From Candidatus Aminicenantes bacterium UBA647 (lineage in GTDB: Bacteria > Acidobacteriota > Aminicenantia > UBA2199): 64,000 nt of DNA. The position numbers and the translations under genes are program-made. The notes beneath the pieces were generated by a model, which was not told the DNA's origin, did not search any database, and was given only the letters and a program-made list of their open reading frames with translations. The stretch spans positions 817 through 64,816 of the forward strand of contig DBOL01000025.1 of the NCBI GenBank assembly GCA_002299555.1, read 5' to 3'. Of the stretch, positions 48,556 through 64,000 are shown one piece after another (position 1 is the stretch's first letter; each line of letters begins with the position of its first letter).

Positions 48556-50706
48556 CTACCTCCATGTATAAGGAGATAAGTTACCGCCAAGATCTCCTAT
48601 AGAATCAACCAGTAACTGAGCAACATATCTGGCATTATGAATATATCCGTGAGGTTCTTTCTTTGACAGCTGAAAGTTATAGGCAGCTTTCAAAAGGTTC
48701 GCAGAAAATCTGTATCCATTTGAATATGATGCCTCTCCACTATCCACAATACCGTTATTGTTAAGATCTTTGAAGAAATACGGATAGGTATGAGAGTCAT
48801 AAACTAGTGGTGCTTTCGACTGACTTCCAACTCTTTGCATTTGCGCATACAGGCTGTCTTCAAGTCCTATGATCTCGTATTTCATTGCTTCAGTTGTATT
48901 CCCGTCTCCATCATAATCGGGAATATTTGCAGGCCTTATTCCACTGAACTTGAACTTGGACGGATCTGCACCCGGATTCGGCTGGGCAATATCCTGTCCG
49001 TGACAATCGACACAATCAGCCTGGTTGGGTTTCTGAACATTATGACCTGTATTAGGTGATTTACCTTTTGTACCCATATGACACTCGATACAAGTTACAA
49101 ATTTGTTGTCATGGTTCGGGTACATCTGGCGTCCTGCATATACTTTCCCCGGATATTCATACCCACCCTGAACCTCGGTACCGAATAGTACAGCAGCTGT
49201 CGGGAAATAGTGGATATTTGTAAATGAATAATTTCCGGTTCCACCGGCTATCTTGCTGTCAACCGAAGCTTTTGAAGCGCGTCCCTGGTGACAGGCCATA
49301 CATAAGTTACTTGCGTCTCCCAAACTGACAACATCCCCTGATGGGAATTTCACGTCTGCCAGCTGCAGCAATGCGGGAGGGCCGGTATGACATGTAGTGC
49401 AAAGCATACCATTGGCGATCGGTTCAGGATCTTCATTGGTTCCGTCAGCAACATATTTAGCAAGTCCTGTCGCGCTATGACATCTTGCACAACTTGATTG
49501 AACTTCACCGTCTCCATCCCAATGTCTCCAGGCTTCCTGTGAACCGGCAAAATGACCTTCATCATTTCTGGTCATTTTTGACATATCAACTCCTCCAGTC
49601 ACAGAATTCATGTCAGCAATAGAATCATACATAAGTTGGATAAGGTATTTGCCTCCGTGAGCAAAAGCCCCCGGATCTTTTTGAGAAGTCTGGTAGTTAT
49701 ACGCAGCTTTTGCCAATCTTGGTGTAAATTTCTTATAACTATTTGCATACACAGCTTCACCCTCATCAATAACACCATCATTATTTGTATCAGTGAAAAA
49801 ATATGGATATGTATGTGATTCATAACCGATAGTTGTTCCAACTACATTTCTGGAGTATACCAGCATCCCGTTAAAGAGGGCATCCTGAAGGCCCTTCAGT
49901 TCATAATAGATCCCTTCAGTTGTATTCCCGTCACCGTCATAATCGGTAAAAGAACCGAAATACCTGATGTTGTGGAGATCCTCTTTACTCTCAATCCCGC
50001 TATGGCATGTATCACATTGTTCAATTTTGATCTCCAATGAATGGGGATCGTGACAATCAGTACAAGAGTTGTATCCGGTTACATGACCGAATTTCCCGTC
50101 ATATGTCTGCCCTGCATATTCATAACCGCCTTTGGCAAGAGTACCGTAAAGGATAGCTCCAGCCGGGAAATAATGGATATTTGAGAACCTGATAGATGAA
50201 GAGGGTGTATCCAATGCTTTGCCGGCAAGTCCTGCCATGACTGAAGGACCTGAAGATCTTCCCTGGTGACAATTCATGCAAATACCTTCATTTCCAAGAG
50301 GTTCATATGTTCCATCTTCATTCATCTCCCCTTTCACTTCGATACCTGAAGGAAATGTCACACCGGCAAAAACCTTCGGAGTCCCATTCTCAACATTAGT
50401 GTGACAGGTTTCGCAGGTAAAGGCTCCCGGTTCATGTCCATTCGCAACAGCACCGGTATTAGTAAATTCTTCGAATCCACCTGCACTGTGACATTTTGCA
50501 CAGCTGGATGGTACAACTGCCGGTTCATCCTCATCCCAATGGACAAATGCTTCCGACGTTGAATCATTATGGCCTGAATCGGCAAATAATGAATCCTGAA
50601 CAGTTTCGAACATAGCTTTATCCATATTACAGGACTGCAGAACAAACAATCCTGTTATAAAGACAAAACAGATTCCGATTATTGATAAATTTTTTCTTTT
50701 ATTCAT
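48556..50706 (-). CDS. Decaheme c-type cytochrome lipoprotein with internal 5+5 duplication (functional analogue of MtrC/OmcA-type surface cytochromes)
   Basis: Ten CXXCH motifs: CAKCH, CETCH, CMNCH, CTDCH, CDTCH, then CARCH, CTTCH, CMACH, CIECH, CVDCH. Lipobox-like LQSC after the signal peptide. GGAGG lies before ATG 50706; the ORF-track extension to 50805 would overlap the upstream gene. Confidence 0.85.
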   Translation of the reverse strand: MNKRKNLSIIGICFVFITGLFVLQSCNMDKAMFETVQDSLFADSGHNDSTSEAFVHWDEDEPAVVPSSCAKCHSAGGFEEFTNTGAVANGHEPGAFTCETCHTNVENGTPKVFAGVTFPSGIEVKGEMNEDGTYEPLGNEGICMNCHQGRSSGPSVMAGLAGKALDTPSSSIRFSNIHYFPAGAILYGTLAKGGYEYAGQTYDGKFGHVTGYNSCTDCHDPHSLEIKIEQCDTCHSGIESKEDLHNIRYFGSFTDYDGDGNTTEGIYYELKGLQDALFNGMLVYSRNVVGTTIGYESHTYPYFFTDTNNDGVIDEGEAVYANSYKKFTPRLAKAAYNYQTSQKDPGAFAHGGKYLIQLMYDSIADMNSVTGGVDMSKMTRNDEGHFAGSQEAWRHWDGDGEVQSSCARCHSATGLAKYVADGTNEDPEPIANGMLCTTCHTGPPALLQLADVKFPSGDVVSLGDASNLCMACHQGRASKASVDSKIAGGTGNYSFTNIHYFPTAAVLFGTEVQGGYEYPGKVYAGRQMYPNHDNKFVTCIECHMGTKGKSPNTGHNVQKPNQADCVDCHGQDIAQPNPGADPSKFKFSGIRPANIPDYDGDGNTTEAMKYEIIGLEDSLYAQMQRVGSQSKAPLVYDSHTYPYFFKDLNNNGIVDSGEASYSNGYRFSANLLKAAYNFQLSKKEPHGYIHNARYVAQLLVDSIGDLGGNLSPYTWR

Positions 50707-50719
50707 CGTTTTTCCTCCG

Positions 50720-52582
50720 TTATTTCCAACTGTAACCAAAGGAAATTTCAAATATATTGGCCTTGTAATCATTATAGCCAAAATCATTTTCCTTAAAATC
50801 AACATATCTGTAATTCAACTGACCGATAAAACCTTTTTCACAAAAATACTTGAAGAAGAGTTTAAAGTTAGTTCTTGTTAATTCCCATGATCCGTTGTTC
50901 TTGTAGTAGTTTAGATAAGCTCCGAGACCAGTCTTATCACTTAGTTTTGAGTAGACATAAAGGTCGAAAAGGTTTGAAGTCCCTTCGAAGAGTATATCCC
51001 AGACATAGGTCCCCTCGCCTCCGCTCCATGATGGCGGATAATAGATTGACCTGTCCCCTTTTCTGGTAACATCGATCAGAGAATATCCGGCTGAGAAATG
51101 AAGTTTTTTCTTGTAAATTCCAAGTCTGAGGTTCAGTTGATTCTTATCCGATGTCCACATCTCACCATTTTGATCACTTTCCGACTTATTGAACAAATAT
51201 GAACCACTGAAGTAAAGATTCTTGTTCTTGTATTTGGCAGTAAGCCTGAATCTGTGAAAATCAGTAGGTGAGATAAGAGTTAACGGATTATCATAAGTCC
51301 CATATTGATAATCTGCTGTTACTCTGAATTTTTTATTAAGCCTCAAGTTCAAATTTCCGAATATTCCGGTTTTGGATGTGGGTTCATTTACATCTTCGAT
51401 AACAATTGCATCTTCCACATCTCTCTGCTCCATTCTGTATCCGATAGTGAATCCGAATTTAGTGTTTGGTTGATACTGAAGCCCTGCTTCAACTCCTCCA
51501 GTTTCATATTTAAGATCCATTGAAGTTTTCTCCCCATCAATGGTCATAGATCCGGTCTGGTCAAAATTATTATAAAAAGTAGTTCCCACCAGAGCCATCT
51601 TATCATTCAGGAAGTAGGTAAAATCGAGATCATAGACCTGAGATTTTCTTGAGAAATCGCCATCTCCAGTATAGTCATATGAAAAACCTGCACCAACATA
51701 ATCGATACCCATTGCACTTTCATCATATGTGAACTCTGTATCCTGGTTCATGATCATAAAGCTGCCTTTCAGGAGAAGCCTTTTAATTGGATTAAATGTG
51801 AATTTTGCAGTGTGCGTAATGCCTTTCATATCATACGGCATATCAAGATGGAAATAATTAAGAGCTGTCGGATATCTGGCGAAATCACCACCGTCAGCAT
51901 ATCCGGGCAGGAACATGCTTGTTGCATTCTCAAAATCAGTAAATTTTTCTTCGATCACAAATGCAAAGCTCTTTCCGCTATAATCAAACCCGAGAGTTAC
52001 TTCAGTTGACATCTCATCTATTGGTTTTTCAAACTCAAACTCAACTCTTCCGATATCAAGTGTATTAACGCTCGATCCTTTCTTTGTGTAGCTGTTAAAA
52101 TCTATATATGCATGAGCACTTTTTCCCAGCCATACTTTGAAAAGGCCTGAATCGTTTATCCGGTCAAATGCATAAGTGTGAAAATCATGTCCTTCAAGAT
52201 GGTCATTATAAAAATATTCTGATTTTCTTCTGTTAAACTTAAACTTGTACTTCCCGTTTTTCACAATATCGAGACCCATACTTTCAAATGGGTCGCCGCC
52301 AAAATTGTGAATATAGACATTCATGTAATCAAAATATTTGTTCATTTTCCCGGCGGGGGCGAAATGAATATTGAAATCGAACAATCTGACCCCATCACCA
52401 AGGTTAATATCCTCTTTGTATTTTGATTCAACTCCGCTTACATCAACATACCTGTACCCTACCAGGAATTTTCCGTAAAACTCATCCTCACCTTGTTCTC
52501 CGGCAGAAAGGGATATTGATGACACAAATCCACAGAACAGGATAACCATTAAAATTGTTAAAAATGATTTATTTATTTTCAT
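50720..52582 (-). CDS. Large outer-membrane beta-barrel, MtrB/PioB-like position in a porin-cytochrome module
   Basis: Signal peptide and 620 aa of alternating aromatic/Gly/Asn/Asp-rich strand-like sequence with no Cys-rich or catalytic motif. It sits between two decaheme genes with 10 and 13 nt gaps. Confidence 0.6.
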   Translation of the reverse strand: MKINKSFLTILMVILFCGFVSSISLSAGEQGEDEFYGKFLVGYRYVDVSGVESKYKEDINLGDGVRLFDFNIHFAPAGKMNKYFDYMNVYIHNFGGDPFESMGLDIVKNGKYKFKFNRRKSEYFYNDHLEGHDFHTYAFDRINDSGLFKVWLGKSAHAYIDFNSYTKKGSSVNTLDIGRVEFEFEKPIDEMSTEVTLGFDYSGKSFAFVIEEKFTDFENATSMFLPGYADGGDFARYPTALNYFHLDMPYDMKGITHTAKFTFNPIKRLLLKGSFMIMNQDTEFTYDESAMGIDYVGAGFSYDYTGDGDFSRKSQVYDLDFTYFLNDKMALVGTTFYNNFDQTGSMTIDGEKTSMDLKYETGGVEAGLQYQPNTKFGFTIGYRMEQRDVEDAIVIEDVNEPTSKTGIFGNLNLRLNKKFRVTADYQYGTYDNPLTLISPTDFHRFRLTAKYKNKNLYFSGSYLFNKSESDQNGEMWTSDKNQLNLRLGIYKKKLHFSAGYSLIDVTRKGDRSIYYPPSWSGGEGTYVWDILFEGTSNLFDLYVYSKLSDKTGLGAYLNYYKNNGSWELTRTNFKLFFKYFCEKGFIGQLNYRYVDFKENDFGYNDYKANIFEISFGYSWK

Positions 52583-52592
52583 GATTCTGCTC

Positions 52593-53402
52593 CTATTTCA
52601 AAAATAATTTATCCAGGTTGGAACCATGGATGGATGAATGGCAATTAGCACAATTTGTATCATTAGCAAGGAATCTCAAATGCCAGTCCGGTGCAACTGA
52701 ATGACAGCTGAAGCATAATTCCCTTACACTCTGATGTTTAAGCATATGCCTGTTCGGTGACCCGTGGACATCATGACAAGCTGTACAGCCTTCAACGCTG
52801 GATGCTTCATGTTCATGCATGAAAGGGCCGCCTTTATCACGGTGACATTTCAAACATGATTCCTGCTTAAAACCACCGAGTCTCTGACGTGCCGCACTCT
52901 CATGAGGATTATGGCATGAAGTACACTCAAGGATCCCTTCTGCAAGGCGGTGTTTTTCATTCAGCATGAATTCCGTGGCAACATCCTGATGACAGGATGT
53001 ACAAAGTTTTGTGTTAAGTTTTGCCATTGAATTCACTTTTTTATGAACTCCATGACACTTGGTACAATCTATACCTGCTTTTGAATGTTCACCATTCATA
53101 AAACCTCCAACAACCGTTTTATGACAGGACAAACATTGTTTGGATTTCTGAAGTGCAGTCTCATTTTTGAATGAGAATATATTCCCGGACTCAGCATTAT
53201 CCAGATGCTTTGCAGCATTTCCATGACAGTCGATACATTTTGCGCTGGAAATACCATGAGCTGTTCCGATAAACTTCACGGAAACTTCATCATGGCACTC
53301 AGCACAAACATTTCCGGCACCCTCTTCTCCGAAAATATCAACCGAAAGGAACACTGTCAGACAGAACGTCATTAACAATACTCCGAAGATTCGTTTATTC
53401 AA
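52593..53402 (-). CDS. Periplasmic decaheme c-type cytochrome (MtrA/DmsE-like size and heme density)
   Basis: Ten CXXCH motifs in 269 aa: CAECH, CIDCH, CLSCH, CTKCH, CTSCH, CTSCH, CLKCH, CTACH, CFSCH and CANCH. It has a signal peptide but no lipobox. The start is TTG, with AGGAGG 8 nt upstream. Confidence 0.85.
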   Translation of the reverse strand: MNKRIFGVLLMTFCLTVFLSVDIFGEEGAGNVCAECHDEVSVKFIGTAHGISSAKCIDCHGNAAKHLDNAESGNIFSFKNETALQKSKQCLSCHKTVVGGFMNGEHSKAGIDCTKCHGVHKKVNSMAKLNTKLCTSCHQDVATEFMLNEKHRLAEGILECTSCHNPHESAARQRLGGFKQESCLKCHRDKGGPFMHEHEASSVEGCTACHDVHGSPNRHMLKHQSVRELCFSCHSVAPDWHLRFLANDTNCANCHSSIHGSNLDKLFLK

Positions 53403-53471: not shown

Positions 53472-53487
53472 AGCATTAAACTTGCCA
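53472..53487 (-). promoter_or_regulatory. Candidate sigma-54 (-24/-12) promoter: TGGCAAG-N4-ATGCT
   Basis: The minus strand reads TGGCAAGTTTAATGCTT. The invariant GG and GC lie at the consensus spacing of TGGCACG-N4-TTGCW, with 2 mismatches. It is about 70-85 nt upstream of the decaheme start codon. Confidence 0.4.
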
Positions 53488-53560
53488 CGCCTTGTTAATG
53501 TAACTGGTTTTGTTTTATTTGAATTATAGGGATTCTTCAATACTGCAACAATTCATCAGT

Positions 53561-53595
53561 GTGTTCAAAACCGAACACATGTTCAATTTTGAACA
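53561..53595. promoter_or_regulatory. Two tandem inverted repeats TGTTC-N6-GAACA (TGT-N10-ACA type), a candidate enhancer-binding-protein UAS
   Basis: GTGTTC-AAAACC-GAACAC at 53561-53578 and TGTTCAA-TT-TTGAACA at 53580-53595. Their centres are 18 bp apart and lie about 80-105 bp upstream of the candidate -24 element. Confidence 0.4.
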
Positions 53596-53616: not shown

Positions 53617-54561
53617 TTACTTATTTCTCCGATAGGTCCTTAATAACACTCTGTAACTTCGTTTAAATATTTTATTGCTCAGCTCTATTTTCCCATTACT
53701 TTCAAGGATCTCCGCAGCTTTGTAAATTGCAGGGAAGAAAGATGGTTCTATAAGAGAAAATCTTGAAAGGTTTTTAATGTTTTCCGGTGAAGGATCAGTT
53801 ATTGATCTTCCTAAATAGAGACCTAATTTCAATCTTTTTGAATCCTTTGCTTTTAAAGCCTCTGTAAAAAAAAATTCTGACTCCATTATTTTATCCTGCA
53901 TAATGAGAGCATATCCATAACCGAGTCCGGCTTCCTCATTTTCACTATCCTTTTCTACAGCTTTTTTGTATATATTCTCTGCAAGTTGATAATTTCCGTC
54001 TATTATCAGAGTAAAAGCCTGCTTTGTTATCCGGTTGAGTTTCCTTTGCTCAAGTTTTTTATCAAACTCTTTGTATACATCACCCGGAGCCTCTCCTTTT
54101 CCAAGAGCCAGTAAATGATTTTTAAAGAATAGACTCAAATTTGATCTGTAACTGACGATCAATGAGTTCAGAATTCCTGCCTCGTTAATAAAGAGCACCG
54201 TGGGCATAACTATGATCCCGAGATTACCATAAATTTTTCTTTCAGGATCATTGAGATTTTTCTTCTCTCCTTTAATTTTGTTAAAAAGGATCATCACCCT
54301 TTTGTCAGTTTCATTATTAACATCAACAAGGAGAAAATAAAGATTTTTTCTTGAATTATATACTTTGCTGAATTGTCTGAAGAATGCAATGGATCTGGGC
54401 TCATCCGATTTCAAATACAGCAAAACCGACTTCTCTTTTCCCTCGAGAAACTTCAACTCATTGACCAGAGGGATATTATCGCCGGTCTTTATCTCCCGCA
54501 AGCCTTCAACATCTGCAGGAAACATATAAAAAGTTAAAAGCAGTAAAACTATTGCTTTCAT
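53617..54561 (-). CDS. Secreted protein with a Cys-less thioredoxin-like N-domain and TPR-like C-domain (function unknown)
   Basis: Signal peptide. A TlpA/redoxin-like strand-helix pattern (SVLLYLKSDEPRS..FF......LYFLLVDVN....MPTVLFI) lacks the CXXC. The C-terminus is a helical repeat region. An ATGA overlap links it to the upstream cytochrome gene. Confidence 0.4.
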   Translation of the reverse strand: MKAIVLLLLTFYMFPADVEGLREIKTGDNIPLVNELKFLEGKEKSVLLYLKSDEPRSIAFFRQFSKVYNSRKNLYFLLVDVNNETDKRVMILFNKIKGEKKNLNDPERKIYGNLGIIVMPTVLFINEAGILNSLIVSYRSNLSLFFKNHLLALGKGEAPGDVYKEFDKKLEQRKLNRITKQAFTLIIDGNYQLAENIYKKAVEKDSENEEAGLGYGYALIMQDKIMESEFFFTEALKAKDSKRLKLGLYLGRSITDPSPENIKNLSRFSLIEPSFFPAIYKAAEILESNGKIELSNKIFKRSYRVLLRTYRRNK

Positions 54562-63797: not shown

Positions 63798-64000
63798 TTG
63801 CCCGAAAAAAAGACCCCCACAATCCTGGTCATCGATGACGAAAAAAGTGTACTCGATTCCTTCAGGCTGATCATGGAAAAGGAGGGGCTGATTGTATTTA
63901 CATCTGAAGATTCTGAAAATGCATTGTCCATTTTAAAAACCTTCACTATTAATGTAGTACTCCTTGACCTGAAGCTGGGGAAAGAGGATGGCCTTGCAGT
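63798..64000 (+). CDS. Response regulator, receiver domain (3' end beyond the window)
   Basis: The frame is open to the window end. Receiver motifs include TILVIDDEKSVLDSF and VVLLDLKLGKEDGL (phospho-acceptor Asp context). The start is TTG, 11 nt after AAAGGAG. It is not in the ORF track because it has no stop. Confidence 0.65.
   Translation, partial: MPEKKTPTILVIDDEKSVLDSFRLIMEKEGLIVFTSEDSENALSILKTFTINVVLLDLKLGKEDGLA

Follow-up and report, generated by a model that had tools for sequence, protein, structure and literature searches.

A predicted sigma-54 promoter with tandem activator sites ahead of an Mtr-like conduit operon in uncultured Aminicenantes

Ahead of the genes for an Mtr-like outer-membrane cytochrome conduit in Candidatus Aminicenantes bacterium UBA647, we find a sigma-54-type promoter element and two tandem palindromes. 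Sequence comparison makes it highly probable that these are a sigma-54 promoter and two upstream sites for a bacterial enhancer-binding protein (bEBP) of the NtrC family, which together drive the three-gene conduit operon. The locus lies in a 64,000-nt window of the metagenome-assembled genome (MAG) GCA_002299555.1, namely contig C99:817-64816, and positions below are those of the window unless a contig is named. This genome, here called G000, comprises 2.66 Mb with 37.6% G+C in 115 contigs. All of the elements are held by a 214-nt gap between the stop codon of a TPR-protein gene (53617) and the TTG start codon of the MtrA-like gene (53402), and they read on the minus strand.

An original prediction, made from the DNA letters alone, had placed a sigma-54-like element and two palindromes ahead of the Mtr-like module, and all three are found where and as it described them. 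The predicted promoter (53472-53487, minus strand) reads TGGCAAGTTTAATGCT, that is TGGCAAG-TTTA-ATGCT, with GG at -25/-24 and GC at -13/-12. The two dinucleotides are exactly 10 bp apart, and the element has two mismatches to the consensus TGGCAC-N5-TTGCW. The distal predicted upstream activating sequence, UAS-1 (53580-53595, minus strand), reads TGTTCAAAATTGAACA, or TGTTCAA-AA-TTGAACA. The proximal one, UAS-2 (53562-53577, minus strand), reads TGTTCGGTTTTGAACA and has the core TGTTC-N6-GAACA; in its extended form (53578-53561, minus strand) it is GTGTTCGGTTTTGAACAC, or GTGTTC-GGTTTT-GAACAC, and begins one base past UAS-1. A spacing of 74 nt separates this extended palindrome from the sigma-54 element at 53487-53472. 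With the predicted transcription start set 12 nt downstream of the GC element (about 53461), from which all site-centre distances are counted, the two sites are centred at about -126.5 and -108.5, so that the 80-105 bp given in the original prediction was roughly right.

The original prediction had also proposed that the genome be checked for rpoN and bEBP genes and scanned with a sigma-54 matrix and with the palindrome motif. The sigma-54 machinery is present in G000, where rpoN is complete (a 467-aa open reading frame, ORF, on C102 with Sigma54_AID, CBD and DBD domains) and about 12 genes have a Sigma54_activat domain. The pattern TGGCA-N7-TGC[AT] has 31 matches in this genome, with 16 intergenic and 13 facing a gene within 400 nt. 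In controls with the spacing shifted to N5, N6, N8 and N9, the numbers of intergenic, gene-facing matches were 0, 0, 0 and 1. Because gene-facing matches pile up at N7 and not at the shifted spacings, we conclude that G000 uses canonical -24/-12 promoters. The pattern TGGC-N8-TGC[AT] gave 15 matches that were intergenic and faced a gene. The ATGC at the -12 position of the conduit promoter recurs in 5 of the 12 other TGGCA-type promoters of the genome, and a leave-one-out matrix built from these 12 ranked the element at 53487-53472 eleventh among all positions on both strands (19.5 bits). Of the 15 best-scoring positions of this matrix, 14 were intergenic.

The palindromes stand out in a similar way. 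The exact motif TGTTC-N6-GAACA occurs five times in the 2.66 Mb, compared with about three occurrences expected from base composition, and two of the five are the adjacent pair described here. A site matrix derived from other genomes only placed the two sites of G000 first and second genome-wide (23.4 and 21.0 bits), and they were the sole intergenic ones among the 27 matches of at least 11 bits. When the matrix was derived from other genera only, UAS-1 ranked first and UAS-2 third in G000, and the remaining matches lay inside coding sequence.

To follow the elements through relatives we used 72 genomes of the family, among which the own genus is represented by eight Candidatus Aminicenantes MAGs (G000-G007). 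Orthologues of the MtrA-like protein were found in 16 of the 72 genomes, and within the genus in G007, G002, G003 and G006 at 83-93% identity. In G007, G002 and G003 the half-sites TGTTC and GAACA of both palindromes are preserved with two single-base changes, and the TGGCA and TGCT words of the promoter are invariant. Drift within the genus affects the spacers of the palindromes, the stretch that separates -24 from -12, the flanking bases and the 5' leader. The spacer of UAS-2, for instance, is GGTTTT in G000 and AATTTT in the other three genomes, and the promoter of G003 reads TGGCAAGGTTATTGCT, which is nearer to the sigma-54 consensus.

Conservation in relatives, which the original prediction had left to be checked, extends to five genera including the own one, in all of which palindromes and a -24/-12 element stand ahead of the mtrA-like operon. 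Outside the own genus, G016 has one site (CGTTCAAAACGGAACG) with the -24/-12 element TGGCACTATTTTTGCT, and G050 likewise has one (TGTTCAAAAGGGAACG) with TGGCACAATAGTTGCT. Two sites each are found in G048 (CGTTCAATTTTGAACG and CGTTCGATTCCGAACG, with the promoter element TGGCAGGATACTTGCT) and in G047 (CGCTCCATTCCGAACG and CGTTCAAAACTGAACG, with TGGCAAGATACTTGCT). The single site of G051 is a 16-mer identical to UAS-1 of G000 (TGTTCAAAATTGAACA) and is accompanied by TGGCACAGGTTTTGCT. G042 has two sites and an element that reads TTGA at -12 (TGGCAAGTTTCTTGAT), and G055 has three sites and the element TGGCAAGGAAAATGCT. The position of the proximal site is also similar, its hand-computed centre falling between -106.5 and -109.5 in G000, G003, G048, G047, G050 and G042, from four genera; the centre is at -98.5 in G016, and the site is more distant in G051 and G055.

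The wider alignment also shows which bases matter. Positions 1 and 16 of the palindrome are C and G outside the own genus (CGTTC-N6-GAACG), and the conserved core is therefore GTTC-N6-GAAC and not TGT-N10-ACA, with an extended consensus of YGTTCAAwwTTGAACR. The original prediction had likened the sites to UAS elements of the NifA/NtrC type. Sites of the bEBP type are supported, both by this conservation and by the linked NtrC-type bEBP genes described below, whereas the NifA motif TGT-N10-ACA is not the core. A NifA-type assignment is further contradicted by the linked regulator, which has a REC and not a GAF domain, and by the outer T/A, which is not conserved. The sites of G000 do literally contain TGT-N10-ACA at NifA-like distances, and we regard this as a resemblance only.

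The gene neighbourhoods in the other genera point to a candidate activator. In G016, the order upstream of the sites is a dCache_3 histidine kinase, a REC-Sigma54_activat-AAA_lid-HTH_8 protein and a single receiver (L038:10936-11313). A REC-Sigma54_activat-HTH_8 gene stands beside the sites in G016, G048, G047, G042 and G055, representing four other genera. In G042, G047 and G048, no more than about 45 nt separate the stop codon of the orthologous bEBP gene from the start of the palindromes, and one REC-only gene lies between the bEBP gene and the sites in G016 and G055. This interposed receiver gene has a -24/-12-like element of its own, TGGTATTTTTCTTGCT in G016 and TGGCAAATAAAATGCA in G055.

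The orthologous pair of G000 is adjacent on C88, with the bEBP at C88:24757-26190 and the membrane histidine kinase at C88:26192-28048. Identity to the G016 pair is 43% for the kinase and 53% for the bEBP, with the next-best paralogue at 37%, and the C88 bEBP matches with an E value of 6e-157 versus 1e-79 for the next protein. The domains are those of the orthologues, namely REC, AAA+ and a Fis-type helix-turn-helix (HTH) in the bEBP and a periplasmic dCache_3 domain in the kinase. The sigma-54 contact loop of the bEBP reads GAFTDS, and its HTH tail, (L/I)(T/S)RSALRSK, is common to all orthologues across genera and occurs in none of the 10 other bEBPs of G000. The pair belongs to an operon that also encodes a multiheme cytochrome resembling NapC/NirT, a small cytochrome c and the ResB/CcsA cytochrome-maturation proteins. 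This operon was considered as a further member of the regulon and set aside, having a weak upstream site (AGTTCAAATTAAAACT) but no -24/-12 element nearby.

Within the genus, the candidate activator and the sites occur together or are missing together. The genomes that carry the motif (G000, G007, G002 and G003) all have an orthologue of the bEBP at 75-100% identity; G001, G004 and G005 have neither an mtrA orthologue nor the bEBP; and G006 has the mtrA operon and lacks the bEBP. Across the eight genomes, the bEBP is thus present where the motif is and absent where it is not. The spacer ahead of mtrA in G006 can still be aligned with its G000 counterpart, including the A-tract block described below, but both palindromes are disrupted (GTTC to GTCA, GAAC to GAAA, with indels in site 1) and the -24/-12 element has decayed, TGGCA having become TGGAC and the TGCT word being lost. 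The genes that flank the C88-type operon are contiguous in G006 and G001 at 75-88% identity, with the kinase-bEBP pair cleanly missing between them, and because these flanking genes are intact and contiguous we take the absence of the pair to be real. In the region C88:20575-30228 the pair appears as a presence/absence polymorphism between a NapC/NirT-like cytochrome of 678-713 aa and the small cytochrome c.

A further copy of the motif is found at the bEBP gene itself in two genomes. In G002 and G003 it lies directly after the bEBP gene, together with a -24/-12-like element (TGGAA-N7-TGCT). In G003 (L052, contig C1), the sequence 3' of the gene holds the motif copy TGTTCAAATATGAACA, the -24/-12-like element TGGAAATAAATTTGCT and a small ORF, which amounts to a free-standing copy of the C-terminal HTH_8 segment of the bEBP (...KKALEKFNGNKSKAAEYLCITRSALRSKL). 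The product of this HTH_8-only ORF may be a competitor or an autoregulatory DNA-binding fragment.

Taken together, these data would fit the following mechanism. The -24/-12 promoter at 53487-53472 would by itself give only a closed complex, and the tandem 16-bp palindromes near -108 and -126 would bind dimers of an NtrC-family bEBP, most probably the one encoded on C88. The dCache_3 kinase encoded on C88 would detect a signal and phosphorylate the receiver of the bEBP. The activated bEBP would then oligomerise on the two sites, loop to the promoter and open it with ATP, which would switch on the operon for the periplasmic decaheme, the barrel and the outer decaheme (53402-48556). That conduit expression is signal-gated by a bEBP, as the original prediction had proposed, is favoured by all of the computational tests that we ran, and if this is right the conduit is inducible and not constitutive.

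We also suggest, much more tentatively, that the kinase, the activator and the GTTCAA-N4-TTGAAC sites form a dedicated conduit switch, gained or lost as a unit across at least five Aminicenantes genera, whose dCache sensor directly perceives the extracellular electron acceptor or a related ligand. If true, this kinase would be the first signal receptor to be identified whose dedicated task is to turn on an MtrAB-type conduit.

Several observations weigh against a bEBP-controlled sigma-54 promoter at this locus. The bEBP gene is unlinked to the operon in G000, and a search for a bEBP gene near the cluster came up empty both on C99 and on the cluster contigs of G002 (123 kb) and G003 (143 kb). 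The palindrome motif lies upstream of none of the 14 other sigma-54-type promoters of G000; a regulon of just one operon would follow, and the link between motif and regulator rests on other genomes. The co-occurrence within the genus comes from related genomes and represents few independent events. G000 is moreover a MAG that is 88% complete, and the enrichment of promoter matches ahead of genes was counted on crude longest-ORF calls (2354 genes, 93% coding). A perfect TATAAT hexamer (53528-53523) is conserved within the genus, and a second promoter, of the sigma-70 type, is possible. Finally, the two palindromes together fold into a 15-bp RNA hairpin with a free energy of -21 kcal/mol (z = -4.6).

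The unlinked position of the C88 gene leads to the alternative that the sigma-54 promoter and the UAS are real but that their activator is a bEBP other than the C88 protein, either a paralogue or one encoded in the unassembled 12% of the genome. Two bEBP fragments lie at contig ends (C95 and C59), and the assignment of the C88 protein rests on synteny in other genera. We nevertheless judge this alternative unlikely. The C88 protein is the unambiguous ortholog of the linked bEBPs and carries the HTH tail found in no paralogue, the presence and absence of this type of bEBP follows that of the motif through the eight genomes of the genus, and the additional motif copy and -24/-12-like element of G002 and G003 lie directly after the gene for this very protein.

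The hairpin raises a different question, namely whether the palindromes act as RNA, forming a 3'-end structure that terminates or stabilises the transcript of the upstream cytochrome cluster, either alone or besides binding a protein. G007, G002 and G003 preserve the stem, with substitutions that the sense strand can accommodate as G-U pairs, and the element follows the TPR stop codon at a distance of 21 nt to UAS-1, just as it comes directly after a stop codon in G042, G047 and G048. However, there is no U-tract behind the hairpin on the minus (sense) strand, and the lone terminator-like call falls on the empty plus strand. The stems are AT-rich, unlike the G+C-rich hairpin plus U-tract by which intrinsic terminators are recognised, so that a hairpin serving as terminator only, which the original prediction had named as a possible refutation, is unlikely. 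Nor does a long hairpin need selection of its own, because two near-perfect copies of a palindrome pair automatically, and a plain terminator does not require each arm to be palindromic in itself. In G016 the half-sites persist while the hairpin is not significant (z = -1.2), and in G055 there are three sites about 280 nt from the next promoter. A role in termination would leave the joint loss of sites and bEBP in G006 unexplained, and an Rfam-type search for RNA families in the gap returned no match at E <= 1. We therefore consider an RNA role of the palindromes in place of the proposed activator sites quite improbable. The tandem sites may still double as an RNA hairpin that insulates the promoter from the upstream cytochrome cluster.

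The least probable of the alternatives is a sigma-70 promoter, TTGTTG-N17-TATAAT with its -10 hexamer at 53528-53523, served by CRP/FNR-type or other dimeric-activator sites at about -53 and -71, with TGGCA...TGCT being fortuitous. The 5-N6-5 geometry of the palindromes is that of CRP/FNR sites, mtrCAB of Shewanella is CRP-dependent and transcribed with sigma-70, and TATAAT is perfect in G000, G007 and G002 (TATATT in G003); but the -35 hexamer TTGTTG is poor and has not been kept in G007, G002 and G003, a sigma-70 scan of the region does not report the pair, TATAAT is absent from G016, G048, G047, G050 and G051, which keep the palindromes and a canonical -24/-12 element, the sites adjoin a bEBP gene and not a CRP/FNR gene in five genomes, and the -24/-12 match ranks among the 11 best in the genome, with an estimated chance frequency below 1e-3 for such a gap.

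The TATAAT hexamer forms part of a block between the UAS and the promoter (53506-53538, minus strand; GAAGAATCCCTATAATTCAAATAAAACAAAACC), which also holds phased A-tracts. Within the genus the block is kept, its A-tract part even in G006, and the other genera lack it. Possible roles are those of an intrinsic bend, a binding site for an architectural protein or an additional promoter. No IHF site (WATCAA-N4-TTR with at most one mismatch) was found in the interval between the UAS and the promoter in eight genomes.

The proposed sigma-54 circuit most resembles NtrB/NtrC at glnAp2, where strong NtrC sites lie at about -108 and -140. Shared with that system are the REC, AAA+ and Fis-type HTH order of the activator, its histidine-kinase partner, and tandem sites about 100-130 bp upstream of GG-N10-GC. 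The two systems differ in the sequence of the sites (GTTCAA-N4-TTGAAC here, TGCACC-N5-GGTGCA for NtrC) and in their spacing (18 bp here, 32 in glnAp2), in the kinase, which has a periplasmic dCache_3 sensor here whereas NtrB is cytoplasmic, and in the activator loop, GAFTDS here and GAFTGA in NtrC. The target is an outer-membrane cytochrome conduit instead of nitrogen assimilation, and the regulator of G000 is unlinked to its target.

The target kind is that of Shewanella mtrCAB, with a periplasmic decaheme, a barrel and an outer decaheme. The control differs, being global, CRP-dependent and of the sigma-70 type in Shewanella and, as predicted here, exerted by a dedicated two-component bEBP and sigma-54 in Aminicenantes.

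The nearest functional precedent is BccR, a bEBP of the REC-AAA+-HTH type that is required for inducing the sigma-54-dependent cbcBA genes in Geobacter sulfurreducens (10.1101/2021.04.15.440034). Like the conduit operon, cbcBA encodes respiratory multiheme cytochromes for extracellular electron acceptors. Its product, however, is a bc-type quinol oxidoreductase of the inner membrane in place of an MtrAB-like conduit in the outer one, bccR adjoins its target in divergent orientation, and the organism belongs to the Desulfobacterota, whereas Aminicenantes belong to the Acidobacteriota; the likeness to BccR is one of function. In our literature search, no paper connected sigma-54 with porin-cytochrome or Mtr-type conduits of the outer membrane, and none dealt with regulation in Aminicenantes. 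A paper on the RpoN regulon of Geobacter makes no mention of outer-membrane cytochromes.

The mechanism that we predict is textbook NtrC-type, here on a new target, and because it is, the value of the case would lie in the target and the lineage rather than in any new principle. Little is known of how outer-membrane conduits are controlled except in Shewanella and Geobacter, and the Aminicenantes are uncultured but widespread. For this lineage we propose a concrete circuit made up of a promoter, an operator with a 16-bp consensus, and candidates for the activator and the sensor kinase. The bEBP and the motif together could serve as a marker predicting which Aminicenantes MAGs control their conduit likewise.

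The operon behind the predicted promoter consists of three genes on the minus strand. The first (52593-53402) encodes the MtrA-like periplasmic decaheme cytochrome of 269 aa, whose TTG start is preceded by an AGGAGG ribosome-binding site and which has Pfam matches to Paired_CXXCH_1, Cytochrom_c3_2 and an NrfB-like family. The second (50720-52582), taken from the ORF list, encodes an outer-membrane beta-barrel of 620 aa in the MtrB-like position; it has a weak OMP_b-brl match, and the gene order is identical in relatives. The third (48556-50805), also from the ORF list, encodes a multiheme cytochrome of 749 aa, the presumed surface partner, which matches Pfam multiheme families and among them, weakly, MtrC/MtrF domain II/IV. 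The operon stops at 48556, opposite a convergent gene. An extra lipoprotein cytochrome gene is found ahead of the mtrA-like gene and behind the sigma-54 promoter in G055 and G042, and the controlled operon is therefore longer there than in G000. On the other side of the gap, the TPR protein (53617-54561, minus strand; ORF list, Pfam TPR_19) is the last gene of the upstream cytochrome cluster.

The original prediction had pointed to a receiver-domain gene starting at 63798 as the possible bEBP. Only the first 596 nt of this gene, which lies on the plus strand, are on the contig, and the 198 aa that are available contain a receiver followed by no Walker A or AAA+ motif. Its orthologue in G003, which is 66% identical throughout these 198 aa, is 356 aa long and combines REC with LuxR/GerE. 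Because this full-length orthologue is of that type, we conclude that the regulator at 63798 is not a bEBP and that its HTH is of the LuxR/GerE kind. Judging from the G003 protein, about 170 aa of linker without a Pfam match separate the REC domain from the LuxR/GerE HTH.

Several other predicted sigma-54 promoters of G000 lie 1-4 kb from bEBP genes, namely those at C5:54845, C66:22567, C80:20380, C115:18561 and C108:5481. Because of these, local pairs of bEBP and target appear to be the rule in this genome, which suggests that the unlinked mtr case is an exception.

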